Positions 4,516 through 57,701 of a DNA stretch of 64,000 nucleotides are shown one piece after another. Origin of the DNA: a virus (lineage: Duplodnaviria; Caudoviricetes); the IMG/VR virus record IMGVR_UViG_3300030943_000011, positions 1,739 through 65,738 of that record. One strand, 5' to 3'. A program made the translations under genes and the position numbers. Numbering within the stretch: position 1 is the stretch's first letter; every line of letters begins with the position of its first letter. The notes beneath the pieces were generated by a model. The model saw only the letters and a list, made by a program, of their open reading frames with translations. It was not told the origin of the DNA and made no database searches.

Positions 4516-4597
4516 AGCCGGACATTTTCATAATCAGACCGAAGGAAAACTAAAGGAGAAAAAAATAATAAAAAAAGCAACTGACAGGCAAAAGGGT

Positions 4598-5120
4598 GTT
4601 CCCGCGTTCCCGCGTTCCCGCACCCCGCGCCCCACGCTCTCAAAAAACCAGAGTAAAACGATTTTGCAAAACTCATGCCATTGAAAACCAAGCCGATAAA
4701 GTATGATAATAATGATAAAAAAAGTAATAATCTCTCTCTGTAAGTTGCGGGAACGATGGGTCACGCTGGGTCACGCTCTAAAAATTACTAATTTTTGGGT
4801 CACGCTGGGTCACGGTGGGACGGACGTTTTTAGCCGTGCCCCAACTTTTAATAAAAATAAGGTATTGAAAATTAATGTGTTAATCCGTAGCGGTTAGTCG
4901 TGGGAACGCGGGACGGAGAAATGGCAAAAAAAGGCCTTCTGAAAAAATAATTAATTTTTTTGCTCCAAAAACACCAAAAAACCGCCTACATATCTATTAA
5001 ATTTTAATAATCAATCAATTTTTTGAATCGAACAATATTAAAAAATGTTCAAAAAATTAGAAAAGTGATAAAAAGTAAACTAAAAAACTATTTAACAATT
5101 TTTAAAAACCAATAAATAAC
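4598..5120. promoter_or_regulatory. Putative replication origin (iterons plus AT-rich tract)
   Basis: GTTCCCGC x3 (4598-4621) with inverted copies near 4747 and 4902; TGGGTCACG x4 (4757-4776, 4796-4814); very AT-rich 4940-5120; directly after primase-helicase. Confidence 0.65.
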
Positions 5121-5220
5121 CCATGGGAAAAGAAATAAATTATGATTTTTTGGTAGATGAAATTATGGCTTACCAATTATCGAAGGAGTACAAACTTTTA
5201 AATTCATTAACACAATCGAT

Positions 5221-5499
5221 ATGGAAAAAGAAATCAAAATAGCAGCCAAACTCTACGAATGCAGAGATACTGCCAAACGTTTTTTCCGCGAAGAATATGC
5301 CGAAAGATTGAAGCCTTACATCCACATCATTAAAGAAGTAATGAAAGCCAATCAATTAGATGAACTGGAGGCTATTCTCAGGATCAGTAAAACCGAAACA
5401 TACCAAGAAGACGGAATGGTGCAACTATTGTTTATGGCTGCTGCAGTGGAAATGATGGAACCATCTGAAGAATTTTTAAACCAAACTAAAGATCAATAA
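5221..5499 (+). CDS. Hypothetical phage protein
   Basis: 92-aa ORF in tight operon spacing. Confidence 0.7.
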   Translation: MEKEIKIAAKLYECRDTAKRFFREEYAERLKPYIHIIKEVMKANQLDELEAILRISKTETYQEDGMVQLLFMAAAVEMMEPSEEFLNQTKDQ

Positions 5500-5500
5500 A

Positions 5501-5881
5501 ATGAACACACAATTTGGAGAATCATTAACAGGCGATTTCGAGGAAAGAACCTGGACGTTCGAAATGCCTGAAGACTTTACCGTTAAATCCGGAGAGTTTG
5601 CGATCGTACCAAAAGCTGAATATGAAGCATTGATTGAAAAACCAAGCTTTAACGGCGAATTGATTTTAACGCTGGAGAGCAAACGAGATTGGGTCCGTAA
5701 GGTTCCTAATTATCTTCCGGAAAAAACAAGGGCTGAACGACTGATTTGGCTCGATGCAAATAATAATAGCCTCACCATTGGCGAAGACTTTACATCTGCC
5801 GAAGAAATGAAATCATATCCTGTAAGGGTTTATCGGGTTACCAGAGTTACTGAAGCCGCGGAGAAAGTTAGAAATAAATAA
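5501..5881 (+). CDS. Hypothetical phage protein
   Basis: 126-aa ORF starting 1 bp after previous stop. Confidence 0.7.
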   Translation: MNTQFGESLTGDFEERTWTFEMPEDFTVKSGEFAIVPKAEYEALIEKPSFNGELILTLESKRDWVRKVPNYLPEKTRAERLIWLDANNNSLTIGEDFTSAEEMKSYPVRVYRVTRVTEAAEKVRNK

Positions 5882-5939
5882 CGTTAATTTTTAGACCGAC
5901 AATAGACCTATTTGAAACAAACCTTTTTAAATAAATGAT

Positions 5940-6305
5940 ATGATTAATATTCAAAATGAAGTTCAAAAAATTCATTCACAATTCGGAATGAGCGAAATGG
6001 CACTGTATAAAATACAGTTGTTATGTTATCAGTATGCCAAAGAATCAAAACAATTTAAACCAATTACGGATGAACTTCCACCTTTAGGAGTTGAATGTTT
6101 ATTACAGAACGATAAGTGGATACACTTGGATTTCAACCCAAAAGGTATTCGTATAGGTTATAGATGTGATTTAAGCGGATGGGTATCAGCATATTTTTGC
6201 AGTCAGCATGATTGTTATATGACAAGACAGGCCGATGAAGACAATGATAACTTCGAACTATCGAAAGCCGAAGATCAAATTCCGACACATTGGCGACATT
6301 ATTAA
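5940..6305 (+). CDS. Hypothetical phage protein (DUF551-like ends)
   Basis: PITDELPP near N-terminal half and PTHWR at C-terminus resemble small phage DUF551-type proteins. Confidence 0.55.
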   Translation: MINIQNEVQKIHSQFGMSEMALYKIQLLCYQYAKESKQFKPITDELPPLGVECLLQNDKWIHLDFNPKGIRIGYRCDLSGWVSAYFCSQHDCYMTRQADEDNDNFELSKAEDQIPTHWRHY

Positions 6306-6341
6306 CGTAATTAAAAGGTTAAACTATAGGAAGATAAAAAA

Positions 6342-6477
6342 TAACATCCAAAGCTATACGCAGGGCAGGTTACGAAGCGATTCACTTTCCTGTCCGCCAA
6401 GTAGCTGATACGGGCTGCAAAGCTCGAAACCCGATGCTACCTGACTTGCCGGATAGCTGAAGTTAACTGCCAGGGCT
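6342..6477. repeat. attC-like site 1 (family A, array-distal)
   Basis: TAAC 6342; arms agctatacgcagggcaggt / acctgacttgccggatagct; GTTAACTGCCAGGGCT from 6462; near-identical to site 3. Confidence 0.85.
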
Positions 6478-6608
6478 TCATTTTGTATCAATTGTTACAA
6501 ACAAGTAAAATAATTACGAAATATCGAAAAATAATTGTAAAAAAGCTTGCATGATATTACTATATATCGTATCTTTACTTCATCAAACAATCACAAATAC
6601 AAAACATC

Positions 6609-6902
6609 ATGGCAACTTTAGAAATCGGACAAACAGGAAAATTAGGAAATGAAATTTTAACAGTAGTTTCTATTTCTGAACCAACTTTTAAGTGTGACAA
6701 CGGCAAAATGTACATGATTGCAACTGCAAAATGGATGACTGAAGGAATTGAAATAGCAGCTCCAAAGGCAAAGAAAGCAAGAAAATACAACGCAGCCCCC
6801 GAAGATTATTTAACAGATATGACAAGAGAAGAAGCTGACAGAGCTGAAGCATACATGGCAAATGCAAAATTCAGACAAGCAGGTAGCTCATTAAGAAAAT
6901 AA
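6609..6902 (+). CDS. Cassette 1 hypothetical protein (paralog of 11039-11332)
   Basis: 97 aa, near-identical to second copy. Confidence 0.85.
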   Translation: MATLEIGQTGKLGNEILTVVSISEPTFKCDNGKMYMIATAKWMTEGIEIAAPKAKKARKYNAAPEDYLTDMTREEADRAEAYMANAKFRQAGSSLRK

Positions 6903-6909
6903 TAAAAAT

Positions 6910-8025
6910 ATGAATATAGCTTTAATTGACAATGATCTACTAATGAGAGATAATCATAATTTCCCCAACTTGGCAATTATGAAACTATCTGCATTTCATA
7001 AAAACAAAGGAGATGTCGTAGAAATAGCTACTTTTAATGAAATAAACCCTTTAGCGCTCTTTAAAAAAGAATACGATAAGATTTATATTTCAAAAGCTTT
7101 TACCGAAACACCAACGCCTTCATTTGTTTATAATTTACCAAATGTAAAGATTGGTGGCACTGGATTTTATTTTGATAAAGCAGAACCGTTGCCTTATGAA
7201 ATAGAACACACAAAACCTGATTACGATGCTTATAATTCAGCTTATAGAATTATAAAAGACACAATGTTTTATACTGATTATTCAATTGGCTATACTACTA
7301 GAGGATGCTTTAGACATTGCTTATTTTGTGTAAACATTAATAGTAATAAAGTTAAAGTACACAGTCATATTGATGAGTTTTATGATTCTTCAAGAAAAAA
7401 AATAGTTTTACTGGATGATAATGTTTTAGGATTACCAAACAATGAGCTTTTTAAAATATTTGATAAGTTTCAGGAAATAAATAAACCAATTAATTACAAA
7501 CAAGGACTCGATATCCGCTTGCTTTCAAAAGAACGAATTGATAGGTTATTTAGGTTAAAATATGATGGAGGAAAAGGCGGGTTTACTTATTATTTTGCAT
7601 TTGATTTATGGGAAAATAAATCCAAAATTGAAGAAAATTTAAAAATGTTTTCAGAAATGTATTTTGAAAGAAAGCCTGATGTAAAATGGTAAGAACGAAA
7701 TTGTATTGTTTTTGCGGGTTTAACCCAAATAATGAAAAATCTGAAAACTACTGGTTAACCGATTTGGAAATACTTTTTAAACGATTTGAAATAATATTTA
7801 GATATAAGGCCGCCCCTTATGTAATGAAGCATAAAGATTATAAAGAAAGTCCCTTTTTTTTACGTTTATGATGAAGTTGCAAACTATATTAATTCAATAA
7901 ATGGAACTTGTTTATCTATGAGCTTTAATGAATATTTGGATACAGCTTATAAAAACACAGTCAAAACACGTCAATTTAGAGATAAATACCCACAATTTAA
8001 AATATTATTTAACACTAAATTATAA
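6910..8025 (+). pseudogene. Radical SAM protein, broken by two apparent frameshifts
   Basis: FPNLAIMKLS N-terminus, CxxxCxxC (GCFRHCLFC), LLDDN, QGLDIRL; coding continues in other frames at ~7686 (A4 run) and ~7861 (T8 run) to a stop at 8025. Confidence 0.7.
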
Positions 8026-8030
8026 AAGAA

Positions 8031-8276
8031 ATGAAAACTTACTCATTGATCAAAACAAAGGCTGGCGAACGCAAAGGAACTGAAAATTCAAATTTTATTG
8101 GTGAAAATGAGAATGATCCTAAAATGTTGGCTGAAGTGAAAACTTACCTAACTGAATGGCTGAATAGTTATACAAGCATTTCGGATGAAGAAATTGCCGA
8201 TTTGTTTTCTGCCTTCGCTGGCAGTTTTTCTTATGACGTTTGGAGCTTTGAATTAATCGAAGAAAATGAAAATTAA
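8031..8276 (+). CDS. Cassette 1 hypothetical acidic protein (paralog of 11363-11611)
   Basis: 81 aa, conserved with second copy, overlaps the HTH gene. Confidence 0.8.
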   Translation: MKTYSLIKTKAGERKGTENSNFIGENENDPKMLAEVKTYLTEWLNSYTSISDEEIADLFSAFAGSFSYDVWSFELIEENEN

Positions 8277-8463
8277 CGAAGCTATCAAGGCTGCAAGAAT
8301 TGAGCAAAATATAACTCAAAAAGAACTTGCCGAAAAAATTGAAGTTCGCAAAGCCACAATTTCAGAGTTCGAGAGCGGTAAACATGCTCTCGGCTCTGAC
8401 AAACTCGAAGCGATAATGAACGCTTTAAATCTGACATTTTCAAAATACACGGACGCAGATTAG
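8266..8463 (+). CDS. XRE-family HTH regulator (cassette 1)
   Basis: IKAARIEQNITQKELAEKIEVRKATISEFESGK is a classical HTH_3 pattern. Confidence 0.9.
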   Translation: MKINEAIKAARIEQNITQKELAEKIEVRKATISEFESGKHALGSDKLEAIMNALNLTFSKYTDAD

Positions 8464-8609
8464 CCTTGCAGTTAACGCTCCCGCCAATACACGCAGTTGG
8501 GGATTTGAAAGATAATTTGTCAAACATAAATAAAACTTAAAAAATGAATGAACAAACGAAAACCACCGAAACCCCAATTGACGGGTATTTGGCTGTTATA
8601 ACCAGTTTT
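8462..8609. repeat. attC-like site 2 (family B, holds start codon of next gene)
   Basis: AGCCTTGCAGTTAAC 8462-8476; arms gccaatacacgcagttgggg / ccccaattgacgggtatttggc; GTTATAACCAGTTTT 8595-8609. Confidence 0.85.
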
Positions 8610-8801
8610 TCAGCCTGTCCACATTGCGGAAGCACGTATGGTTATTATAGCCGAGTCAAAATATCTGGCACGGTTGATTATCAATGTGATTTTAACGGCA
8701 ATGGCGAAAATACCAATATCGCAGATGGTTTTAATTACACAACAATCAGCAAAACTTACAGATGTATCGAGTGTCGAAAGATAATCTGTCAGATACATTA
8801 A
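8544..8801 (+). CDS. Cassette 2 zinc-ribbon protein
   Basis: CPHC...CIEC; ATG lies in loop of site 2, stop abuts site 3. Confidence 0.7.
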   Translation: MNEQTKTTETPIDGYLAVITSFSACPHCGSTYGYYSRVKISGTVDYQCDFNGNGENTNIADGFNYTTISKTYRCIECRKIICQIH

Positions 8802-8946
8802 AATTGGTTATAACGGTGGAAGCTATACGCAGGGCAGGATGCGAAGCGATTCACTTTCCTGTCCGAGAACTGGCTGATACGGGCTGCAACGCTCGAAAAC
8901 TACGGCTGCCTGACTTGCCGGATAGCTGAAGTTAGCAACTAGGCGT
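8800..8946. repeat. attC-like site 3 (family A)
   Basis: AAAATTGGTTATAAC 8800-8814; arms agctatacgcagggcagg / cctgacttgccggatagct; GTTAGCAACTAGGCGT 8931-8946. Confidence 0.87.
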
Positions 8947-8972
8947 TCATTCATCAACTTAAATCTAAAAAT

Positions 8973-9554
8973 ATGCCTTGGTACGATTTAAACGAAAAAG
9001 TAGAAACGAAAAAGGATTATTTGCAAAGAGTCAAATATGATGAGATTATTTGCAAGAAAACTAAAAATTTCATTGACATTATTGGAGATGATTTATCCCC
9101 AAATGTTCAATATCGAATGGTAACGGAACAATCTTTTAATGCAATAGTCGTAATTGAATATTTGCTTAAAAGATATGAGTTAGTTGAGATTTATATTGCT
9201 GTTTACCGAATGAATCAATTGTCAGTCAACAAACTAAAATCAATCATTGATGCCGGAAATATTAAATGTTCGATTTTGATTTCTTCGTTTTTTCGTGAAA
9301 ACAAACGATATGAACGCTGGGCCGAAGAACTGATTATGTATGCCGAAAAAAGAGAAAATGTAGAAGTTTCTTTTGCTGTAAATCACGCGAAAGTTTTTAT
9401 TGCAAAAACAAAGGATTTGAAATTTATAGTTTTTGAAGGGAGCGGAAATTTATCCGATAATGCCAGGATAGAGCAATATTTGATTGAGGATAATGAAACA
9501 ACATACAATTTTCATAAAGAATGGATTACTAACACTTTAAATTTAAAAAAATGA
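8973..9554 (+). CDS. Cassette 3 phospholipase D-superfamily (HKD-like nuclease) protein
   Basis: NHAKVFI...EGSGNLSDN...EQ fits HxK...GSxN; homologous to 21101-21697. Confidence 0.7.
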   Translation: MPWYDLNEKVETKKDYLQRVKYDEIICKKTKNFIDIIGDDLSPNVQYRMVTEQSFNAIVVIEYLLKRYELVEIYIAVYRMNQLSVNKLKSIIDAGNIKCSILISSFFRENKRYERWAEELIMYAEKRENVEVSFAVNHAKVFIAKTKDLKFIVFEGSGNLSDNARIEQYLIEDNETTYNFHKEWITNTLNLKK

Positions 9555-9865
9555 AAATCGAAAAAGAAAACGAAGAGCAGATTATCAATTTCGGAGTATT
9601 TACATATGATGCTTTGAAAATGGCCAATATTCTAAATCTTGAAGAAGCTGAAATTGCAAATGAAATGAGAGATAAAACATCTGATTTTTATAAGCTATAT
9701 CAAAAAGGCTGCGATATGGCAGACTATGTAATTGATTTAAAATTATTCGAAATGGCAAAGTCTGGCGATATAAAAGCTCTTGACAAATTAGATGATCGAA
9801 AAGAGATTCGAAATGCAGAAACAAGAGAAAGATTTAAAGAAATAGCAAGACAGAAAAGAGAATAA
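9551..9865 (+). CDS. Cassette 3 small helical protein (paralog of 21666-21956)
   Basis: 4-bp overlap with PLD-like gene; shares NEEQ..., MA.x.L.L.E, YxKG..., A..G pattern with 21666. Confidence 0.7.
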   Translation: MKIEKENEEQIINFGVFTYDALKMANILNLEEAEIANEMRDKTSDFYKLYQKGCDMADYVIDLKLFEMAKSGDIKALDKLDDRKEIRNAETRERFKEIARQKRE

Positions 9866-9903
9866 AATTCAAGAAGATAAAGATCACCATCAACGAAGCA
9901 CTT

Positions 9904-10049
9904 ACGCTTGTTGCTAACGGTGTAGCATACACGAAGTTGGGGAATAGAAAGTAATAACCTGTCAAATTTAACGAATGAAAATAGATACAGATACAGTAAC
10001 AACCTGCACCGATACCCCAATTGCGGGTATGCGAAGTTATGCACAGCTT
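9904..10049. repeat. attC-like site 4 (family B, holds start codon of methyltransferase)
   Basis: ACGCTTGTTGCTAAC 9904-9918; arms gcatacacgaagttgggg / ccccaattgcgggtatgc; GTTATGCACAGCTT 10036-10049. Confidence 0.87.
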
Positions 10050-10772
10050 TCACATGGATCTCTGTTCAGCGGGATTGAAGGTTTTGGATTAGGTGCTGCA
10101 ATGGCTGGAATCAAAACGGTTTTTAGTTGCGAATTTGAAGATTTTCAAACAAGTATTATTAAAAAGAATTTTGGAGATGAACACGAAATCAATAGAGATA
10201 TTAGAACGTATAAAAACCCGCCATTTGTTGACATCATTAGCGGTGGATTCCCTTGCCAGGACATCAGTATTGCTGGAAAAGGTATCGGAATTGGAGGTGA
10301 AAGAAGCGGCTTATGGTCTGAAATGTACCGTATTTGTGGGATCGTTAGACCAAAGTACATTATCATTGAAAACAGCCCAATGCTCCTTGTTCGAGGATTT
10401 GAGCAAGTCCTTTGCGACCTTTCCAAAATCGGGTATTATGCAGAATGGCAATGTTTATCTGGCACCGACTTTGGAATACAACAGGGTAGAGAGCGATTAT
10501 ATTGTATTGCCTACACCAACGAAATCGACAGCAAAAGGAGCTGCACGGAATCGGTATTTCGGAAGCCCTACTTACAGGGGAAATATACACGAGTATATCC
10601 GGGATGGAGAACAAGACAGTCTTTACCCTCACCCCGATTTGCTGGAAAATCTAATGTCATTCCCGATAGGATGGACAGAACTCAGTCAATAGGTAATGCG
10701 GTTCAACCGATAATTTCTCATTATCTTTTTGAATGTATCAAAATGCACTACGCCAAATTAAGTTGTGCATAA
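9975..10772 (+). CDS. Cassette 4 DNA cytosine-5 methyltransferase, main (alpha) chain
   Basis: Motif I SLFSGIEG, IV GGFPCQDIS, VI IENS, VIII QGRERL, X IGNAV; stop codon is the TAA of site 5 TAAC. Confidence 0.92.
   Translation: MKIDTDTVTTCTDTPIAGMRSYAQLSHGSLFSGIEGFGLGAAMAGIKTVFSCEFEDFQTSIIKKNFGDEHEINRDIRTYKNPPFVDIISGGFPCQDISIAGKGIGIGGERSGLWSEMYRICGIVRPKYIIIENSPMLLVRGFEQVLCDLSKIGYYAEWQCLSGTDFGIQQGRERLYCIAYTNEIDSKRSCTESVFRKPYLQGKYTRVYPGWRTRQSLPSPRFAGKSNVIPDRMDRTQSIGNAVQPIISHYLFECIKMHYAKLSCA
10093..10692 (+). CDS. Nested alternative-frame polypeptide, putative methyltransferase beta chain carrying motif IX
   Basis: 199 open codons inside the MTase gene ending LPTPT...LLENLMSFPIGWT (motif IX-like), which the main frame lacks; true start uncertain. 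Confidence 0.7.
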   Translation: MLQWLESKRFLVANLKIFKQVLLKRILEMNTKSIEILERIKTRHLLTSLAVDSLARTSVLLEKVSELEVKEAAYGLKCTVFVGSLDQSTLSLKTAQCSLFEDLSKSFATFPKSGIMQNGNVYLAPTLEYNRVESDYIVLPTPTKSTAKGAARNRYFGSPTYRGNIHEYIRDGEQDSLYPHPDLLENLMSFPIGWTELSQ

Positions 10773-10907
10773 CGGTCTGCAAGTACACGTCAGGGCTGGA
10801 CTACGGGCTGAAACCTTTCTTGTCAGAGCAAAAGACCGGGCGAATAAATGCAGACCGCACCGCACTGCTGCCAGACTTGCGGGTACTTTGCTGTTAACTG
10901 CTGGGCT
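10760..10907. repeat. attC-like site 5
   Basis: AAGTTGTGCATAAC 10760-10773; arms gcaagtacacgtcagggctgg / ccagacttgcgggtactttgc; GTTAACTGCTGGGCT 10893-10907. Confidence 0.85.
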
Positions 10908-11038
10908 TCGTTTTGTATCAATTGTTACAAACAAGTAAAATAATTACGAAATATCGAAAAATAATTGCAAAAAAGCTTGCATGATATTACTATATATCGT
11001 ATCTTTACTTCATCAAACAATCACAAATACAAAACATC

Positions 11039-11332
11039 ATGGCAACTTTAGAAATCGGACAAAAAGGAAAATTAGGAAATGAAGTTTTAACAGTAGTTTC
11101 TTTTGATAACATGACTTTCAAATGCGACAACGGCAAAATGTACATGATTGCAACTGCAAAATGGATGACTGAAGGAATTGAAACAGCAGCCCCAAAAGCA
11201 AAGAAAGTAAGAAAATACAACGCAGCTCCCGAAAATTATTTATCAGAAATGACAAGAGAAGAATCAGATAGAGCTGAAGCATACATGGCAAATGCAAAAT
11301 TCAGACAAGCAGGTAGCTCATTAAGAAAATAA
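11039..11332 (+). CDS. Cassette 5 hypothetical protein (paralog of 6609-6902)
   Basis: Near-identical duplicate. Confidence 0.85.
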   Translation: MATLEIGQKGKLGNEVLTVVSFDNMTFKCDNGKMYMIATAKWMTEGIETAAPKAKKVRKYNAAPENYLSEMTREESDRAEAYMANAKFRQAGSSLRK

Positions 11333-11362
11333 TAACCATTATAACCATTAAAACCATTTAAA

Positions 11363-11611
11363 ATGAAAACTTACTTATTGATCAAAACAAAAGCTGGCGA
11401 ACGCAAAGGAACTGAAATTTCAAATTTCATTGGTGAAAATGAAAATGATCCTAAAATGTTGAAGGAAACTGAAACCTACCTTCGCGCCTGGTTGGATAGT
11501 TACAACAACAGCCTGACACTTGAAGAGATTGACAGACTGTTTGAAAATTTTGAAGGTAGTTTCTCTTATGACGTTTGGAATTTTGAATTAATCGAAGAAA
11601 ATGAAAATTAA
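11363..11611 (+). CDS. Cassette 5 hypothetical acidic protein (paralog of 8031-8276)
   Basis: Duplicate with diverged middle. Confidence 0.8.
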   Translation: MKTYLLIKTKAGERKGTEISNFIGENENDPKMLKETETYLRAWLDSYNNSLTLEEIDRLFENFEGSFSYDVWNFELIEENEN

Positions 11612-11798
11612 CGAAGCCATCAAGGCTGCAAGAATTGAGCAAAATATAACTCAAAAAGAACTTGCCGAAAAAATTGAAGTTCGCAAAGCCACAATTTCAG
11701 AGTTCGAGAGCGGAAAACATGCTCTCGGCTCTGACAAGCTCGAAGCGATAATGAACGCTTTAAATCTGACTTTTTCAAAATGCACGGACGCAAATTAG
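11601..11798 (+). CDS. XRE-family HTH regulator (cassette 5)
   Basis: Identical to 8266-8463 product except at the C-terminal tail. Confidence 0.9.
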   Translation: MKINEAIKAARIEQNITQKELAEKIEVRKATISEFESGKHALGSDKLEAIMNALNLTFSKCTDAN

Positions 11799-11862
11799 CC
11801 TTGCAGTTAACTACTATATGTATTTTATTCTCACAACAAACTAACATTTAAAACTTTACAGC
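11797..11862. other. attI-like terminal half-site
   Basis: AGCCTTGCAGTTAAC (cassette 5 end) followed by non-hairpin AT-rich sequence, 51 bp before the recombinase ATG. Confidence 0.6.
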
Positions 11863-12696
11863 ATGAACATCGGAAACTATCAACGGCAACTTTCCGACTG
11901 GATGAAGTACAAAAAATACTCTCCGGAAAGCATAAGCAATTACGTTTCTTGTATCGGTAAGTTTCTCAAATATTTTGAAGATGAAGCAACAAAACCGAGT
12001 GAGATTTCTGCTGTTCAGATTAAAAAGTTTCTATCAACAAAACAGCAAGTAAATACTCATAAGGCTTATTTGTGTGCAATAAAGTTGTTTTACGAAAAGG
12101 TTGGACATCAACCGAGAAAGCTCGATAATGTTGAATATCCACGATCTGAAAAGAAATTGCCAATTGTTTTGAGTCAGGATGAAATACAAAAAATGTTTGA
12201 TGTTTGCGAAAACCTTAAACACCGCACTATTTTAGCATTGATTTACTCCTGTGGGTTGCGTGTTTCTGAAGTAATAAATCTGCAATGGAGTCACATCGAC
12301 TGCAGCCGAATGATAATCAACATTATTTGCGCAAAAGGGCGCAAAGACCGACAAATTGCATTACCCGAAACCATAATACCACTACTGAAAAGTTATTACA
12401 AAGAATATCACACTGAAAAATATGTTTTGAATGGTCAGTTTGGATTAAAATATTCAGACAGAAGCGTACTAGAGGTAATGAAGCAATTAGCCGCAAAATC
12501 AAAAATTAAAAAGCGAGTTTACACTCATCTTATCAGGCATAGCACATTTACGCACATGGTTGAGCAGGGCACAGACATAAACCTCATTCAGCGAATTGCA
12601 GGCCACAACAATGTTAAAACAACGATGCTCTATTGTCATCTTTCTGATAATCTTATCAGCAGAATACAATCACCAATTTCTAACATTAGAATTTGA
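11863..12696 (+). CDS. Tyrosine recombinase (XerD/IntI-like, 277 aa), candidate cassette integrase
   Basis: N-terminal SAM-like region; GLRVSE, AKGRKDR, HLIRH, AGH, TMLY = complete R-K-H-R-H-Y set. Confidence 0.93.
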   Translation: MNIGNYQRQLSDWMKYKKYSPESISNYVSCIGKFLKYFEDEATKPSEISAVQIKKFLSTKQQVNTHKAYLCAIKLFYEKVGHQPRKLDNVEYPRSEKKLPIVLSQDEIQKMFDVCENLKHRTILALIYSCGLRVSEVINLQWSHIDCSRMIINIICAKGRKDRQIALPETIIPLLKSYYKEYHTEKYVLNGQFGLKYSDRSVLEVMKQLAAKSKIKKRVYTHLIRHSTFTHMVEQGTDINLIQRIAGHNNVKTTMLYCHLSDNLISRIQSPISNIRI

Positions 12697-12735
12697 TTCA
12701 AGTATTGGAGTTGTTGAACTAAAATCGTTATTAAC

Positions 12736-12766
12736 AAAAGCCTGTTCGTAGTTGAGCAGGCTTTTT
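12736..12766 (+). terminator. Intrinsic terminator closing array/recombinase unit
   Basis: aaaagcctgttc gtagtt gagcaggcttttt. Confidence 0.8.
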
Positions 12767-12852
12767 ATGTTTTTCGAACCATACATATTAAAATTAATTT
12801 CTATATTGTAACCGCTTCATTCACCGTGTTAATCCTATAACGCGATGTAAAA

Positions 12853-13422
12853 ATGACTTCACCCGATAAATTTGTAGTTTCCATACCAGTTAAGCCTTAC
12901 GTAAAGCGCTTTATCGAATTGAACTACGGTTTACCTGCAGATTTCACCAATCACCCCGAAATTCACAAGGTTGTATGCCGCTCGTTAAAGAAACCGCGCA
13001 CTCAGTATGATAAACAATTTGAAAATAAATTGTGTACTTACACTGAAACAATTGAAATTGTAATATCACAGCGAGATTTCTACCGTTACGGTTGGGAGTT
13101 CTCGCGCACTGATGTGGTTGAATTTGGAAAGTCATTTGAATCAATCATTAAATGTAACATGCACAATGTGGTGAATATTTACCGGGGTGTTGGACTATCG
13201 ATTAAAGACAGCATCCAGAAATACCAGGTGCATTATAAAATGGAAGAAGAATACTGGCCTTATGAGTCGATCAAGAAAGAATATTACCGCCGTAGGCCGG
13301 TAAACCAGATTGATTTTTTTGTTGAGATTATTGGTAAAATAGACGAATTATTTATGCTCACATTGTCCCGCAAAAAGGACAATGTGACACCAAAAAAAAT
13401 AGAATATGAAACAGTTGAATAA
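12853..13422 (+). CDS. Putative transcriptional regulator (candidate late-gene activator)
   Basis: 189-aa basic protein immediately before the structural genes; function by position only. Confidence 0.45.
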   Translation: MTSPDKFVVSIPVKPYVKRFIELNYGLPADFTNHPEIHKVVCRSLKKPRTQYDKQFENKLCTYTETIEIVISQRDFYRYGWEFSRTDVVEFGKSFESIIKCNMHNVVNIYRGVGLSIKDSIQKYQVHYKMEEEYWPYESIKKEYYRRRPVNQIDFFVEIIGKIDELFMLTLSRKKDNVTPKKIEYETVE

Positions 13423-13864
13423 GCCTTCAGACAACATGGGTGGACTCCTGAAAATTTGGGCGGTTCCACCAACCGATATCATCATCGGAATCGACTCCGT
13501 CAGTTTTTCATCTCAGGATGATATCGTCGAAATGTATTGCTCACCAGGGAGCATGTCGTTTACCGAAAAAGAAAACAACACCCAATCGGGATTGAGCTAC
13601 AAAACCGAATTGAACGCTTTTGTACCGAAGGACTCACCCGAAGCCCAAATCATTATTGAAGGTATGTCTGGCCGGAAATGGATCGTGGTTTATCTCGATC
13701 AGAATGAACAGTATAAAGTGGCCGGAACAGTTGATATCCCCTTGCGTGTTGCTTTCGATCTGAACACCGGTTCTGATACTCCCGAACGCAACGGGCATAG
13801 CGTTTCGTTTTACGGCACCCAGCTGTCGAAGGCGAAGTTTATCAGTAATCCATTTGCTGAATAA
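13406..13864 (+). CDS. Virion structural protein, paralog of 16422-16976
   Basis: Shared NMGG N-terminus and (I/F)(V/I)V.D...QY/KY..G pattern. Confidence 0.6.
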   Translation: MKQLNKPSDNMGGLLKIWAVPPTDIIIGIDSVSFSSQDDIVEMYCSPGSMSFTEKENNTQSGLSYKTELNAFVPKDSPEAQIIIEGMSGRKWIVVYLDQNEQYKVAGTVDIPLRVAFDLNTGSDTPERNGHSVSFYGTQLSKAKFISNPFAE

Positions 13865-13903
13865 GCCGAAAACCTCGTGTTTTCTGCTTTTACAGGCGGT
13901 CGA

Positions 13904-13939
13904 TGTCCTTTCGACCGCCTTTTTTGTGCCCTAAACTTG
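13904..13939 (+). promoter_or_regulatory. Late promoter motif copy 1
   Basis: TGTCCTTTC-N19-TAAACTTG before prohead protease. Confidence 0.75.
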
Positions 13940-13957
13940 CTGAAAATACAGCAAGTT

Positions 13958-15355
13958 ATGAACTATTTATTCTTAAAAGATATAGTAAGCAGCCCCTGGC
14001 AGGTCGATGCAAACACGTTCAGGTCGTTGCTTCCCATCTTCAGGGGATTCATGGCAGGAGCCAGCATCGAGAAAGCCGAAGAGCCCGAATACTATAAACC
14101 TTATTCCATTTCAGCAGCTGATAAGTCAACGGTTATGGGTTACTATGCCGACGATCAGCCCGAGTTAATGGATCAGGAGCCAGAGAAAGAAAAGGTAGTG
14201 AATGTTTTGCCAATCCGCTCGGTATTGACAAAACATGATCAGGAATGCGGACCGCGAGGAACCCGCACCTATGCTAATCGCTTGTTTCGTGCCGATGCCG
14301 AAGAAAACGTAATCGGTCACATTATAGTTATGGAATCAGGCGGCGGTCAGGCTATTGCTGTTCCTGAATTAACCGATGCTATCCTGAAATGTAAAAAGCC
14401 AATTATTACCTGGGTCGACGGTATGGCCTGTTCGGCCGCTTATTACATTGCCAGCTATACCAAAGAAATTATTGCCAGTCGCGCTAATGATATCATTGGC
14501 TGTATTGGTACTATGGCCGTTTACGAAGGTCGTAAAAGCAAGTCTGAAGAAAATGAAGATGGTGAAATTCAAGTAACGATTTACGCCGATGGCTCAGAGG
14601 AGAAAAACGAAGAGTATACCAGAGCAATCGATGAATTTGATTTTACCCTCGTTAAAGTCCGTTTTTTAAATCCATTGAATGACAAATTTAAAACAGACGT
14701 TACCGGCAATCGATCAGCAGTAAAACCTGAACAGTTGAAAGGCCGCAGTTATTTCGCTTCTGACTGTGTTGGAACGCTCGTTGATTCGATTGGCGAATTC
14801 AGTGTAGCCATGGATCGCATTATTGCACTGGCCGACTTCAAACCCACCAAAAAAACAAGTAATCAAAATAATAAAGTAACACTTAATTCATTTATTCCCA
14901 TGAAGAAACAATTCGTGAATGTGAATAAAGTGTTGAATGTGGAAACTTTGGAAGCTACCGAAGAAGGCGTATTCCTCAATGAGGACCAGCTGGAGTTGGT
15001 AGATAGCCAAATTGCACAGATTGACACTTTAACCAGCGAACACGCAACGGCTATTAACGCTGTTACTGCTGAACTTGCTACGGCAACCGAAAGCATAACT
15101 GCAGTAACTGCCGAACGCGATACCGCCCGTAACGAACTTACCAATGCTTTGAATCCGTTCAACGCCATTGATCCTACCATTGCCAGCGCTGAAACTCCTG
15201 AAGCAAAAGTTCAGGCTATCCGCACACTGTTGGCTGCTAAACCGGGAGCTGCTCCTGCTCAAAATTTGGGCAGTACCGATCCGATTACTGAAGAAGTTGA
15301 TTGGGAAGCCATCGACAATCTTCCGCACAACAAAGCTGTTGACGCAAACATTTAA
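13958..15355 (+). CDS. S49-family prohead protease with C-terminal scaffold
   Basis: ESGGG, MACSAAYYIAS, IGCIGT motifs; Ala/Thr/Glu coiled-coil tail; start moved to ATG 13958 downstream of promoter motif. Confidence 0.88.
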   Translation: MNYLFLKDIVSSPWQVDANTFRSLLPIFRGFMAGASIEKAEEPEYYKPYSISAADKSTVMGYYADDQPELMDQEPEKEKVVNVLPIRSVLTKHDQECGPRGTRTYANRLFRADAEENVIGHIIVMESGGGQAIAVPELTDAILKCKKPIITWVDGMACSAAYYIASYTKEIIASRANDIIGCIGTMAVYEGRKSKSEENEDGEIQVTIYADGSEEKNEEYTRAIDEFDFTLVKVRFLNPLNDKFKTDVTGNRSAVKPEQLKGRSYFASDCVGTLVDSIGEFSVAMDRIIALADFKPTKKTSNQNNKVTLNSFIPMKKQFVNVNKVLNVETLEATEEGVFLNEDQLELVDSQIAQIDTLTSEHATAINAVTAELATATESITAVTAERDTARNELTNALNPFNAIDPTIASAETPEAKVQAIRTLLAAKPGAAPAQNLGSTDPITEEVDWEAIDNLPHNKAVDANI

Positions 15356-15367
15356 TCCTTAATAGCC

Positions 15368-16333
15368 ATGACAATCACTACTTCTGCTATCGTATCAGAG
15401 TATGGCGCTTATTATCAGGATGCCGGACAAAACAAGAAACGCATTCTTACCATGCTCTCTCAGGGCCGCGAAATCGTCGATCTCGCCACCCCAATCAAAA
15501 CGGATGACACTATCTTCCGTTTAGCCAATGCAAGCTTTCGCTCGCTGGTGCAACCCTTCCAAAAAGCATTCACTCCAAAAGGTGGTGTTGAAATCGTTCC
15601 AAACGAAATCCGCGTATTCCGTTTCAAAATCGACGATGAATTCATGCCCGACGAATTGTACGGTACCTGGTTGGGTTTCCTTGCAAAAGGTGGTCTCGAC
15701 CGCAAAGAATGGCCATTTGTAAAATGGTTGATCGAAGTGTACTACAATCGCCAGATTGATCAGGACATGGAACTGAAAGAGTACTACAAAGGCGTTTATG
15801 CTGCTCCTGCCAATGGTGTTGCCGGTATCGACGGAACAGGTATGGATGGTTTGAAAAAACAACTTCAGGCTGGAGTTGATGCTGAAACCATAAATTCAAT
15901 CAATATCGGTCCATTAGACGAAGCCAACATCTTCGATCAGGTGGAAGAATTCACCGATAAAATTTCTGAAATCTATCAGGGTGTGCAAATGGATGTTTGC
16001 ATGAGCAAATATTGGGTAAAGAAATACCTTCAGGACAAACGTTCACAAGGTTTCTACATCAAGAAAGGCGACAACGAAATCACTACCGGTGTCGACTTTA
16101 CTCCGATGAATGTAAAAGGTTTGGCCTCTATGGTTGGAACCAACGACATTTTCTGTACTCCAACTGAAAACTTCCTACACCTCTCTCCAATCACTTCCAC
16201 CAAAAACAGCTGGAAAATTGAAGAAGCCAAACGTGCCGTAGCCGTTATGGGCGACTGGGCCGAAGGTTTAGGTTTTGGTATCAACCAAGCTGTATGGACT
16301 AACATCCGACCAACCGGATCGGGTTCAAACTAA
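15368..16333 (+). CDS. Major capsid protein
   Basis: 321 aa directly after protease-scaffold; strongly biased codons; positional inference. Confidence 0.75.
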   Translation: MTITTSAIVSEYGAYYQDAGQNKKRILTMLSQGREIVDLATPIKTDDTIFRLANASFRSLVQPFQKAFTPKGGVEIVPNEIRVFRFKIDDEFMPDELYGTWLGFLAKGGLDRKEWPFVKWLIEVYYNRQIDQDMELKEYYKGVYAAPANGVAGIDGTGMDGLKKQLQAGVDAETINSINIGPLDEANIFDQVEEFTDKISEIYQGVQMDVCMSKYWVKKYLQDKRSQGFYIKKGDNEITTGVDFTPMNVKGLASMVGTNDIFCTPTENFLHLSPITSTKNSWKIEEAKRAVAVMGDWAEGLGFGINQAVWTNIRPTGSGSN

Positions 16334-17370: not shown

Positions 17371-17559
17371 ATGAATAGTGATAAAAGAGAATTCAACATG
17401 TTTAAAGGCGATGGATTTCCCCTAATCGCGATTACTCCTGAACGCAATTCGAAATGCAAGTGTGGAAGCGGCAAAAAAACAAAAAATTGCTGTGGAGTTA
17501 AAACACAGGTTTTCTCTACGAAGACCGAAAGGGTAACCAAGCGTAAAAAGAAACCATGA
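17371..17559 (+). CDS. SEC-C motif small protein
   Basis: RNSKCKCGSGKKTKNCC matches SEC-C zinc-binding motif. Confidence 0.8.
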   Translation: MNSDKREFNMFKGDGFPLIAITPERNSKCKCGSGKKTKNCCGVKTQVFSTKTERVTKRKKKP

Positions 17560-19691
17560 AAATCATATTTCTGATAGGTGTAAATAATGTGGGCGGTGCA
17601 GAATATGTTTCGTTTCAGCACGTAATGATGGCCAGTCGTAACGAAATGGATGTTACCGTACTGAGTGGAACTAAGGGGATGTTCTTTGACTTTATAAAGT
17701 CATCAGGAATAAAAATTGAAGTAATTGGAATGAATCCAAAATCATCTGTTATTGAATCCTACCTAAAAGATTGCGATGTGGTTTTTAACTGTAACTCGTT
17801 TGGTATTACCCAAACTGTGATCTCTCTCAAACAAAAATACGGATTCCGTTATCTGACTATTATACATAGCAACATCAACTGGGTGTATGATCAGATGCTT
17901 AAATATTACCAACACACCGACGGATTTTATGCAATACACCAAAAGATTGTCGATTCGTTTGTGGCTAAGGGCGTGATGCATATCCGAAAGTTTACAGTTA
18001 TACCCAATTGTGTGGATGCCAAACTGGTCGGTAAAAATTTGGAACGTAGAGAGGCCGTTCGCGAAAAGTTTGGATTTGATAAAGACGATTTTGTGATTGG
18101 CATGATTACCCGAATCGCCCAGGATAAAAATACAATGGATGCACTTAAAATACTGAAAGGATTGCCCGCGAGTATTCAATCTAAACTATTCATTATAGGT
18201 GGTGCTGCCGATAATGCCTCAAGCATTGACTATGAGCGCCGAATTGTAAAACAAATTAAAGAACTTGGTTTGACAGGCCGGGTGATCATCACGGGCAACG
18301 TAATTTCTGAACAGGTATATGAGCTGATGCAAGCTTTTGATATCGGTTTAAATTGTTCGCCATCTGAAGGGTTACCCATTGCCTTGCTTGAAATGATGGG
18401 CGCAGAAATACCTTGTATAATGCCCTCGCTCGGTGAAATTACAGAGGTTTTGGATTCAAGCCGCGGACTTATCGTGTGGATAAGGCAACGACTGGATATA
18501 GGTGAAATTTTGGCTGAACCGTGTTACGATGATTACGAGATTCAAAACTTCAGATATGGTATTTCGCTGCTTCACAGCCATAAATCGCTTCGTGAAAATA
18601 TGGGCGTCAATGCAGGTAAATACATTTTGGAACATCGCAACCTGGTCATTCAGGAAAAAATGTTTTTGAAATTTATAGGCACCAGTCAGCCGGTTCTGGT
18701 ACCAAAAGTAAAACCAACAATAGAACAGCGCAAAATCAGTATGGCAGGAAGTGGATATACTGCGGAAACCGATGTTGTTTATGTGTTGGGCACCGGATCG
18801 CACTGGAACGACAACGAGCTCCGTTTTAGTTTGCGCAGTCTGGCCAGTAACCTTAATGGAATTAGAAATGTGTTTGTGGTTGGAGCAAAACCCAAATTTT
18901 TACAGAATATAATTCACATCCAAGCTAACGATGAATTTGAGCCCGCCAAAAATGCCGATGGAAACATTATTCTAAAAGTATTAAAGGCTTGCGCCGACGA
19001 ACGGCTATCAGATAATTTTCTGTTTATTAACGACGATCACCTGATACTGGATCCAATTGAAATTTTGGAAGTTCCGCAATTCCACAAAGGTGATATGAAA
19101 GATTATGATCGTGATTTTTGGAAATTGAATTTTTGGAGGGAAAGACTAAAACGAACCATGCATATACTGTATGATCGGGGGTTGACGACATTCAATTTTG
19201 ACTGTCATACACCCATGTTAATTAATAAAATACGGTTCGTTGAAATAATGAATAGCTTCAACTATGGCGCCGATATTGGCCTAACCATGAAAAGTCTGTA
19301 CGGAAATTCAGAAAATTCAAACTCAATAGTACAGCTTACCAACGAAAAGCAAACCATTTTTAAGAATTATACCCTTCAAGAATTGAACGAACGATTAAGT
19401 GCCTGTCGGTTCATGTCGTTCAACGACCAGGGATTGAATAACTCGCTAATTTATTGGTTATGGAGCAAATTTCCGAATCAGACAGAATACGAATCAGACG
19501 ACATTCAGGAAAAAATAATTGACGTTTACAGTTGGCTCGAAAGTTCGCGTGACTTTAAAGCAGGAATAGATCTGTTTAAAAAATACATGAAAGGCAATAA
19601 CCTGCTCGATTTATTCGAAGATGGTGAAACCCCACGATTACGGAAAAAATTGGAATATAAATTAGAAAGGATATTCGATGGCATCAAATGA
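17556..19691 (+). CDS. GT4 glycosyltransferase fused to Stealth-like phosphotransferase domain
   Basis: GGAE, VIPNCVD, EGLPIALLEMM (EX7E); then DVVYVLG...DNELRFSLRSL...FLFINDD. Confidence 0.85.
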   Translation: MKIIFLIGVNNVGGAEYVSFQHVMMASRNEMDVTVLSGTKGMFFDFIKSSGIKIEVIGMNPKSSVIESYLKDCDVVFNCNSFGITQTVISLKQKYGFRYLTIIHSNINWVYDQMLKYYQHTDGFYAIHQKIVDSFVAKGVMHIRKFTVIPNCVDAKLVGKNLERREAVREKFGFDKDDFVIGMITRIAQDKNTMDALKILKGLPASIQSKLFIIGGAADNASSIDYERRIVKQIKELGLTGRVIITGNVISEQVYELMQAFDIGLNCSPSEGLPIALLEMMGAEIPCIMPSLGEITEVLDSSRGLIVWIRQRLDIGEILAEPCYDDYEIQNFRYGISLLHSHKSLRENMGVNAGKYILEHRNLVIQEKMFLKFIGTSQPVLVPKVKPTIEQRKISMAGSGYTAETDVVYVLGTGSHWNDNELRFSLRSLASNLNGIRNVFVVGAKPKFLQNIIHIQANDEFEPAKNADGNIILKVLKACADERLSDNFLFINDDHLILDPIEILEVPQFHKGDMKDYDRDFWKLNFWRERLKRTMHILYDRGLTTFNFDCHTPMLINKIRFVEIMNSFNYGADIGLTMKSLYGNSENSNSIVQLTNEKQTIFKNYTLQELNERLSACRFMSFNDQGLNNSLIYWLWSKFPNQTEYESDDIQEKIIDVYSWLESSRDFKAGIDLFKKYMKGNNLLDLFEDGETPRLRKKLEYKLERIFDGIK

Positions 19692-57519: not shown

Positions 57520-57592
57520 AGCGAAGTAGAGCAGCAGGCAGCTCGCCGGATTCATAATCCGGAGGTCATGGGTTCGATTCCCGTCTTCGCGA
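57520..57592 (+). tRNA. tRNA-Met(CAT), initiator-like
   Basis: Acceptor gcgaag/cttcgc, D stem gagc/gctc, anticodon arm ccgga-ttCATaa-tccgg, T arm atggg-ttcgatt-cccgt; CCA not encoded. Confidence 0.85.
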
Positions 57593-57701
57593 CACGGTGG
57601 ATGAAGCAATTCGGGGGTAGATCCTTATCGGTGCCCCTGTTTTTCACCTAACAAACAACAAAATTACAAATAGCGTCCCCACGCCCAAAAACAACACAGT
57701 T

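Follow-up and report, generated by a model that had tools for sequence, protein, structure and literature searches.

Classical integrons (IntI, attI and attC, as in class 1 and Vibrio integrons) couple a tyrosine recombinase to a docking site and a one-directional array of short cassettes, and IntI uses its extra domain to read the extrahelical bases of folded sites. Here we describe a locus of similar layout in a phage of the Caudoviricetes, in which a 277-amino-acid (aa) tyrosine recombinase is directly preceded, on the same strand and within 5.5 kb, by five gene cassettes that each begin with a hairpin (Table 1). The window, meaning the whole stretch of DNA analyzed, comprises 64,000 of the 65,738 bases of an IMG/VR record (IMGVR_UViG_3300030943_000011) that is rated 100% complete, and nearly all of its genes lie on the + strand.

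The likeness to integrons extends to the sites themselves. As in attC arrays, the phage hairpins are imperfect, variable in sequence and conserved in shape, with AAC...GTT cores, an asymmetric bulge and a strand bias; the crossover would fall within the stem, the cassette ends are complementary, and a DNA methyltransferase is among the cargo. Element sizes of 49-136 nt also resemble the attC size range. The orientation is different. In integrons the genes point away from intI, the Pc promoter lies at the intI/attI end and attC sits at the 3′ end of the gene, whereas in the phage the cassette genes point at the recombinase and the hairpin comes first, often containing the start codon of the gene. 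In addition, the paired cassette ends span about 12 nt plus TAAC instead of a 7-nt R box, the replicon is a phage, and no Pc-type promoter logic is evident. Unlike IntI, the phage recombinase has no additional domain, scores under the IntI cut-off and falls outside IntI in a tree.

Xer recombinases (XerA, XerC/D) are the best sequence and structure matches to the phage protein, which shares their two-domain build of about 280 aa without an arm-binding domain. In contrast to Xer resolvases, it is phage-encoded, scores under every Xer equivalog cut-off and is linked to multi-site arrays rather than to a single dif-like site. Integration of CTX-phi by XerCD is reported to use a folded single strand (PMC3442271). 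Stem-loop cassettes are also described in T4-type phages, where promoter-early stem-loops (PeSLs) flank small non-essential genes that shuffle as modules and form mini-circles (PMC2839356). However, PeSLs are promoter-terminator motifs that recombine through repeats, and the portion of that source considered here names no dedicated recombinase, 4-nt core or own-end complementarity for them.

Integron sites have been reported from phages. The main text of a survey of 10,705 phage genomes describes three complete IntI integrons, one In0 and 17 integrase-less attC clusters (CALINs); attC clusters occurred in virulent phages, one of them a Polaribacter (Bacteroidota) phage, methyltransferase cargo was noted, and IntI1 recombined five of six tested phage sites at G|TTRRRY (Qi et al., 2023; PMC9892861). 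In contrast to the locus described here, those CALINs are reported as integrase-less, and the main text names neither a Xer-like phage recombinase nor a recombinase-proximal site. In full-text literature searches, which included the main text of PMC9892861, we found no description of a Xer-like recombinase tied to phage hairpin cassette arrays.

We consider it probable that this phage carries an integron-like gene-cassette system and that the 277-aa protein serves as its site-specific recombinase. What appears to be new, as supported by the comparisons below, is integron logic run with a different recombinase clade, a mirrored gene orientation and a phage host.

The recombinase and the integron integrase domain

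We assign the protein to the tyrosine recombinase superfamily on the basis of its PF00589 match (4e-35), its R-K-H-R-H-Y residue set, which was placed through alignments to XerA and IntI, and an N-terminal SAM-like core-binding domain that matches PF13495, an IntI-typical N-terminal family (2.6e-8). Residues R133, K158/K161, H222, R225, H248 and Y257 are invariant in 15 family members with 58-79% identity to the query. The initial annotation had pointed to a full catalytic set and to a spacing of only 58 residues between KGRKDR (residues 158-163) and HLIRH (222-226), and had concluded that the insertion typical of IntI is absent. The spacing counted on the translation is the same, and every comparison with IntI agrees with that conclusion.

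In a phmmer alignment to VchIntIA (2a3v), query residues 10-178 match IntI residues 9-180 and query residues 202-274 match 246-319, which leaves 23 query residues facing 65 residues of VchIntIA. The NCBIfam IntI profile TIGR02249 is matched at positions 4-179 and 244-314 of 315, with positions 180-243 unmatched, and the score of 162.6 bits lies under the 265-bit cut-off; a second IntI profile, NF011946, gives 104.8 against a cut-off of 435. Alignment to IntI1 (25.6% identity) pairs 312 IntI1 residues with 267 query residues, so that IntI1 is about 45 residues longer over the span. An AlphaFold2 model (mean predicted local distance difference test score, or pLDDT, 80.1) places a short loop, residues 183-198, between helices 169-182 and 199-212, and predicts no extra helical module. 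As judged from these alignments, the segment of about 42-64 residues that defines integron integrases is missing from the phage recombinase, and integron-finding tools based on IntI would not recognize it.

The closest solved relatives by sequence are XerA (8.2e-32) and IntI4 (3.4e-28), and Foldseek puts the same entries first, the best neighbors of the model being XerA (5hxy), IntI (2a3v) and a Pyrococcus Xer protein (4a8e). Scores against the Xer equivalog families are 183.2 bits for XerA_Arch (cut-off 220), 152.3 for XerC (335.15) and 150.6 for XerD (329.6).

Hairpin elements and paired cassette ends

The hairpins of cassettes 1, 3 and 5 can be aligned end to end. A covariance model built from these three copies recovered the two other hairpins of the window and three elements upstream of the recombinase gene in a related locus (L001), but no element in loci L003-L007. 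Because this model was too narrow, it was replaced by a scan for end motifs and arm duplexes, in which a TAAC...GTTA pair lies 100-150 nt apart and the 34-nt ends pair at -20 kcal/mol or better. Applied to 81 loci, the scan detected 140 elements upstream of the recombinase genes (440,612 bp) and 9 downstream (649,496 bp; counts not dereplicated). A shorter TAAC...GTTA class of 49-92 nt, absent from the window, is distributed in the same direction, with 85 elements upstream and 11 downstream of recombinase homologues, again not dereplicated. A permissive Rfam scan of positions 4000-14000 matched no family, and the GTTAAC hexamer, with 15 sites in the window against 16.3 expected, is not informative alone.

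What is conserved among the elements is their shape. At 85% identity, 120 upstream elements fall into 88 sequence clusters, and the two arms of one element pair far better (-30.2 kcal/mol, 88 comparisons) than arms taken from different elements (-14.2 kcal/mol, 699 comparisons). For covariation we used a plain MAFFT alignment of 77 of the 88 clusters, omitting 11 with odd lengths or nested termini, and a 15-pair structure. In this alignment 88.2% of cells are paired, compared with 67.2% in shuffles, and both sides have changed in 249 cells, compared with 87; none of 500 shuffles reaches either value. The covariation score is 0.482; slid partners give 0.085-0.159 and shuffles 0.146. Stem covariation holds across the 77 diverged copies.

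The fold has a constant anatomy. At the base is a 5-bp stem, TAACG/TGTTA, with a fixed G·T pair (78/87 elements), followed by a bulge of 3-4 nt on the 5′ arm. Exactly 5 bp followed by four unpaired bases opposite none are seen in 30 of the 88 elements, and a net excess of at least two unpaired bases on the 5′ arm in 78. The main stem has a median of 24 bp overall, with a second frequent G·T pair in 51/77 elements. It is closed by a terminal region (median 72 nt) that often holds the leader and start codon of the cassette gene. The + strand folds better in 82/88 elements with RNA parameters and in 79/88 with DNA parameters, and G·T pairs have the G on the 5′ arm 221 times, compared with 27 in the reverse orientation.

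Of the two open reading frames (ORFs) that start in hairpin loops of the window, at 8544-8600 and 9975-10035, both share the N-terminal motif T(E/D)TPI(D/A)G, which is encoded by the 3′ arm of the hairpin. With this loop start and arm-encoded peptide, the methyltransferase of cassette 4 has a predicted 18-residue extension before an internal Met.

A transcribed strand that folds better and is rich in G·U pairs would also be seen if the hairpins were RNA regulatory elements (leaders, translation starts or terminators, similar to PeSLs), with the genes shuffled by homologous recombination and the recombinase unrelated to them. The cassette genes fit such a reading in one respect. Among 52 complete cassettes (median 500 nt, range 222-2066), the first ORF begins inside the hairpin element in 39, and in 15 the last ORF ends on the TAA with which the following TAAC begins, as does the methyltransferase gene in the window. 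Every cassette opens with its hairpin on the 5′ side, and its ORFs run in the same direction as the recombinase gene, towards which they point. Shuffling of phage genes by stem-loop cassettes, with mini-circle formation, also has a precedent in PeSLs (PMC2839356).

The ends of the cassettes are harder to reconcile with RNA elements. The far end of a unit is the stretch just before the next TAAC, and its last 12 nt were compared with the 12 nt downstream of GTTA in 101 non-identical cases. At least 10 of the 12 positions pair in 48/101 own-end comparisons (mean 8.29), compared with 2/101 for the end of the preceding cassette (mean 6.02) and 12/1000 for random ends (mean 5.87). All five cassettes of the window follow this rule, with own-end duplexes of -9.9 to -15.0 kcal/mol and neighbor's-end duplexes of 0 to -5.8 kcal/mol. 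The values are -15.0 against -2.7 for cassette 1, -13.5 against -3.1 for cassette 3 and -15.0 against -5.8 for cassette 5; cassette 2 pairs at 11/12 positions with its own end and at 5/12 with its neighbor's, and cassette 4 at 10/12 with its own. In a linear transcript this complementarity spans the whole gene, whereas in a DNA circle it is a simple extension of the stem.

Cassette 5 is a duplicate of cassette 1 minus the 260-aa and 61-aa genes, and both are bounded by the same ends. The two genes overlap, occupy the stretch inserted in cassette 1 relative to cassette 5 (6910-7871) and match no Pfam family; they may be one gene split by a frameshift.

The cargo of the window consists of the C5 methyltransferase, two HTH_3 (helix-turn-helix) copies, the 85-aa protein with its weak zinc-ribbon matches, and proteins without an assigned function. 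To describe cargo more widely we took 50 proteins from other loci, out of 73 ORFs of at least 40 aa, excluding overlapping alternative-frame ORFs and the window proteins. A Pfam match at E<=1e-4, in some cases under Pfam's own cut-off, was found for 14 of the 50 and none for the other 36. The matches are three N6/N4 and two C5 DNA methyltransferases, a Lar restriction-alleviation protein, another recombinase, two PAPS-reductase-like proteins, an RNA-ligase-like protein, a zinc ribbon, DUF4326 and DUF1541, and a weak GTP_EFTU match. From these matches, a role of the cargo in counter-defense and counter-restriction is plausible. The body of the window's methyltransferase gene (10051-10744) has 84% DNA identity to uncultured human-fecal phage contigs and about 70% to Bacteroides phages, and it was the sole match in a distant DNA search of positions 5001-13000 against deposited phages. 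This homology sets in 12 nt past the hairpin and ends short of the following TAAC; because it is confined to the gene body, relatives of this cargo gene exist without cassette ends.

Cassette movement and the recombinase clade

The site at which cassettes meet the recombinase gene has no hairpin. The motif TAAC-TAnTATATGTA is kept in 7/7 of the first loci compared, and YTAAC-TAnTATATGTAW, with variants, occurs about 40-58 nt before the ATG in 65 distinct upstream regions. DNA homology between the window and L001-L003 begins at 11800-11808, at this candidate docking site, and ends at the recombinase stop codon. At the docking site, a conserved arm flanks TAAC on a single side.

Two related phage loci, L071 and L072, show cassettes in permuted order. 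Their backbone flanks are 83-99% identical and their recombinase genes 98.8% identical, and they carry the same cassettes, at 98-100% identity, in a different order; at the junctions, the flanking sequence diverges immediately 5′ and 3′ of TAAC. One cassette ending in GGCATTACTGC, immediately before TAAC, is followed by the recombinase-proximal TATTATATGTAA in L072 and by another hairpin in L071. Because the same cassette end is joined to the docking site in one phage and to a hairpin in the other, the site before the recombinase gene is a real junction, and an attI-like site that receives cassettes appears to adjoin the gene. In contigs from two metagenome runs (X2, X3), cassette 4 of the window has a different left neighbor, and the break falls at its TAAC (9915). 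Both the L071/L072 comparison and the pairing of own ends led us to place the cut at the 5′ TAAC and to drop the 3′ GTTA, which the duplicated block 6462-8476/10893-11811 had first suggested.

These junctions bear on the RNA-element explanation. The breakpoints lie at a 4-nt TAAC with unrelated sequence on either side, which is too short for homologous exchange, and a recombinase-proximal junction that lacks a hairpin still receives cassettes. The elements are, moreover, tightly linked to one recombinase clade, as described next. We regard it as unlikely that the hairpins act only as RNA elements and that the recombinase has no part in the shuffling.

For the association with the recombinase, the loci were dereplicated into 64 clusters at >=97% recombinase nucleotide identity and counted only where at least 3 kb of flank was available. 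At least one 100-150-nt hairpin lies within 3 kb upstream in 26/37 clusters, with two or more in 14 and 54 elements in all; within 3 kb downstream, a hairpin is found in 3/58 clusters. The initial annotation had called the recombinase cassette-linked and had asked whether TAAC...GTTA hairpin arrays regularly precede its homologues; it named a hit to the IntI-specific profile or a lack of association with arrays as grounds for refutation, and neither outcome was obtained with TIGR02249 and these loci. The cassette link and the association agree with these counts and, in the window itself, with five same-strand hairpins in the 5.5 kb upstream set against a sparse downstream background.

Among relatives on genome contigs, those with at least 51% identity mostly have upstream hairpins where sequence is available, whereas those with 45% or less, mostly on Bacteroidota chromosomes, mostly have none. 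In a quick maximum-likelihood tree of 60 rows, which included two IntI references and one long outgroup but no XerC, XerD or XerA references, the 27 sequences with at least 50% identity form one clade (Shimodaira-Hasegawa-like approximate likelihood ratio test, SH-aLRT, 99), whose sister is a Segetibacter contig at 45% identity. A 99-supported group of 57 rows unites the recombinase clade with other cell-contig proteins and excludes IntI1 and a Vibrio IntIA; within that group the clade nests among Bacteroidota cell-contig recombinases. The proposal of a distinct clade apart from IntI is in line with this tree. As for the further proposal that this XerD-sized clade handles hairpin sites, the clade and its linkage to arrays hold, while handling by the enzyme is suggested by adjacency, by clade-specific co-occurrence and by the TAAC junction at the recombinase's own upstream site.

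An ordinary role would be that of a small phage integrase or a Xer/Cre-like dimer resolvase acting at an attP or dif-like site, with the array served by host IntI or Xer enzymes or inactive. The Xer-type nearest families and the nesting among cell-contig recombinases would fit such a role, and bacterial IntI1 is able to recombine phage attC clusters (main text of PMC9892861). Yet the first bases of the conserved upstream site are the very TAAC at which cassettes end, and among relatives on cell contigs most of the closer ones have hairpins and most of the distant ones do not. The phage also already encodes a second, 437-aa tyrosine integrase, so that another enzyme is available that could serve lysogeny. 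An ordinary integrase or resolvase therefore seems to us a slightly poorer candidate still than the RNA-element explanation. It is very improbable that the hairpins are selfish miniature elements, akin to miniature inverted-repeat transposable elements (MITEs) or repetitive extragenic palindromes (REPs), that insert at TAAC while the genes stay in place: although they have TAAC/GTTA terminal inverted repeats, many copies and two size classes (49-92 and 100-150 nt), and related copies precede unrelated genes (cassettes 1 and 3), hairpin and gene are permuted together as units at 98-100% identity, and an element-only insertion would not create the match between a gene segment's far end and the flank of its own hairpin.

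The recombinase family is large, with 3382 proteins at E<=1e-10. In 50,697 records of deposited phage genomes, no relative reaches 50% identity, and the best match is the integrase of Polaribacter phage Leef_1 at 32.4%; this absence may explain why the family went unremarked. Leef_1 (L171), a cultured North Sea phage, has the same gene order of primase, small ORFs, small integrase and protease/capsid genes. Its 32%-identical integrase gene (7930-8855) is preceded by TAAC..TATATACG, a 55-nt TAAC...GTTA hairpin lies at 4246-4300, and two AAC...GTT hairpins of 122-128 nt are also present. From these features, Leef_1 may be a culturable relative of the phage cassette system.

Other relatives are more distant or differently placed. 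On four Bacteroidota/Ignavibacteriota contigs (L135, L144, L127 and L140), hairpins of the same family lie 1-6 kb from recombinase homologues of 35-40% identity, with no adjacent docking motif and no consistent own-end pairing. The best plasmid match, on an Aeromonas veronii plasmid (L175, 4001-4765), has 41% identity over query residues 20-275; the gene is annotated as a 203-aa tyrosine recombinase, looks shortened, and is immediately followed by a VEB-type beta-lactamase gene, in a stretch bounded by sul1/ISCR1 and IS26. One related contig (L058) carries, about 2.5 kb upstream of the recombinase gene by which the locus was selected and within the cassette region, a second recombinase of 326 aa with the same domain make-up (4561-5538).

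Proposed mechanism and genomic context

We propose that excision of a cassette would result when the recombinase cuts the coding (+) strand at TAAC in two folded sites and exchanges the strands between them. Once circular, the excised cassette would have its ends on either side of the hairpin, adding about 12 bp to the stem. A crossover within TAAC would then lie inside the stem, and a stem-internal crossover is the logic of the R box in integron attC. Exchange between a folded site and the double-stranded TAAC-TAnTATATGTA would insert a cassette beside the recombinase gene, with resolution by replication as in integrons. The layout corresponds to a canonical integron read on its bottom strand, with AAC-first/GTT-last hairpins, a docking site and the integrase gene in sense, apart from the cassette genes, which share the strand of the integrase gene; the better-folding coding strand would here take the place of the recombinogenic bottom strand of attC. 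The link between enzyme and cassettes comes from their adjacency, the junction at the recombinase's own upstream site and the clade-specific co-occurrence. The cassette anatomy, stem covariation, own-end pairing, permutation at TAAC and association with the clade are observed; we infer catalysis by this enzyme, a folded single-stranded substrate and the exact phosphate that is cut.

Several observations weigh against this proposal. In the strict scan 11 of the 37 dereplicated loci have no hairpin, including L005 and L032, for which 10 kb of upstream sequence is available. Single-copy folding of 150-nt stretches, for three elements on both strands, is no better than for shuffles (z from -0.74 to +0.19); this test is uninformative because about 70 nt of each element is unstructured loop, and the structural evidence therefore rests on the comparison between copies. 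The G·U bias of the + strand and the start codons in loops would also suit an RNA-level role. After GTTA, cassettes 1 and 5 are about 93% identical, and their hairpins only about 55% (estimates from sequence and alignment); a crossover at the 5′ TAAC would not by itself predict so abrupt a shift at the hairpin's 3′ end. Neither a circular cassette nor an empty site was seen; the data searched were contigs of four runs, which contained no joints and are uninformative on excision. Finally, IntI needs its extra domain to read extrahelical bases, and an enzyme without it would have to read the bulge and the G·T pairs in some other way.

With these points in mind, we lean guardedly towards the broader reading that folded single-strand hairpin recombination can proceed without the IntI domain, and that a Xer-like clade in Bacteroidota phages runs its own cassette platform, with a mirror-image gene orientation, hairpins that serve as leader or start regions, and swapping of counter-defense genes. 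The integron principle would then have been invented independently in this clade, or else the platform would be what remains of the Xer-like precursor of integrons. Integrons are defined and detected by the additional domain of IntI. If a Xer-sized enzyme runs the same logic, surveys would undercount such platforms and would record their arrays as clusters lacking an integrase, which is how the published phage CALINs were labeled. A second solution for the recognition of folded sites would be needed beside the current structural account, in which the extra domain reads extrahelical bases. Phages would own a dedicated machine to gain, lose and reorder accessory genes, and the cargo would make the turnover of their counter-defense repertoires directly testable.

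Table 1. Features of the window, with positions counted from its first base
Feature	Position	Strand	Description
Primase-type replication protein	580-4515		followed by small ORFs
Cassette region	6342-11807	+	
Cassette 1	6342..8472	+	2131 nt; ORFs of 97, 260 (CxxxCxxC motif), 61 and 81 aa and a 65-aa HTH_3 protein
Hairpin, cassette 1	6342..6465	+	TAAC...GTTA, 124 nt
Cassette 2	8473..8810	+	338 nt; 85-aa protein with weak, sub-threshold Pfam zinc-ribbon matches
Hairpin, cassette 2	8473..8598	+	126 nt; covariance model 32.5 bits; ORF start codon at 8544 in loop
Cassette 3	8811..9914	+	1104 nt; 193-aa and 104-aa ORFs, no Pfam family
Hairpin, cassette 3	8811..8934	+	124 nt; 86% identical to the cassette 1 element
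Cassette 4	9915..10769	+	855 nt; C5 cytosine DNA methyltransferase (PF00145, 6.7e-38); stop codon is the TAA of the next TAAC
Hairpin, cassette 4	9915..10039	+	125 nt; covariance model 34.6 bits; ATG at 9975 in loop
Cassette 5	10770..11807	+	1038 nt; ORFs of 97 and 82 aa and a 65-aa HTH protein
Hairpin, cassette 5	10770..10896	+	127 nt; diverged from the cassette 1 element, with compensatory stem changes
Recombinase-proximal attI-like docking site, TAAC-TACTATATGTATT	11808..11824	+	about 55 nt before ATG; candidate by conservation and junction use
Simple tyrosine recombinase, 277 aa	11863..12696	+	core-binding SAM_4 and catalytic domains, without the IntI additional domain
S49-type protease	13877-15355		two ORFs of unknown function between the recombinase and protease genes
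321-aa ORF	15368-16333		no Pfam family
Second tyrosine integrase, 437 aa	53465-54781	-	PF00589 (9e-15) and SAM-like domains
tRNA-Met	57520-57593	+	2.7 kb from the 437-aa integrase gene

The 437-aa integrase is probably the lysogeny integrase of the phage, and attP may lie nearby. The late region contains a 711-aa ORF (17556-19691) with glycosyltransferase group 1 domains and a sub-threshold Stealth CR2 match, which is unusual in a structural module. Right after the primase gene, at 4590-4830, are short tandem and inverted repeats, with GTTCCCGC present three times and TGGGTCACGC in two pairs; they look like replication-origin iterons.

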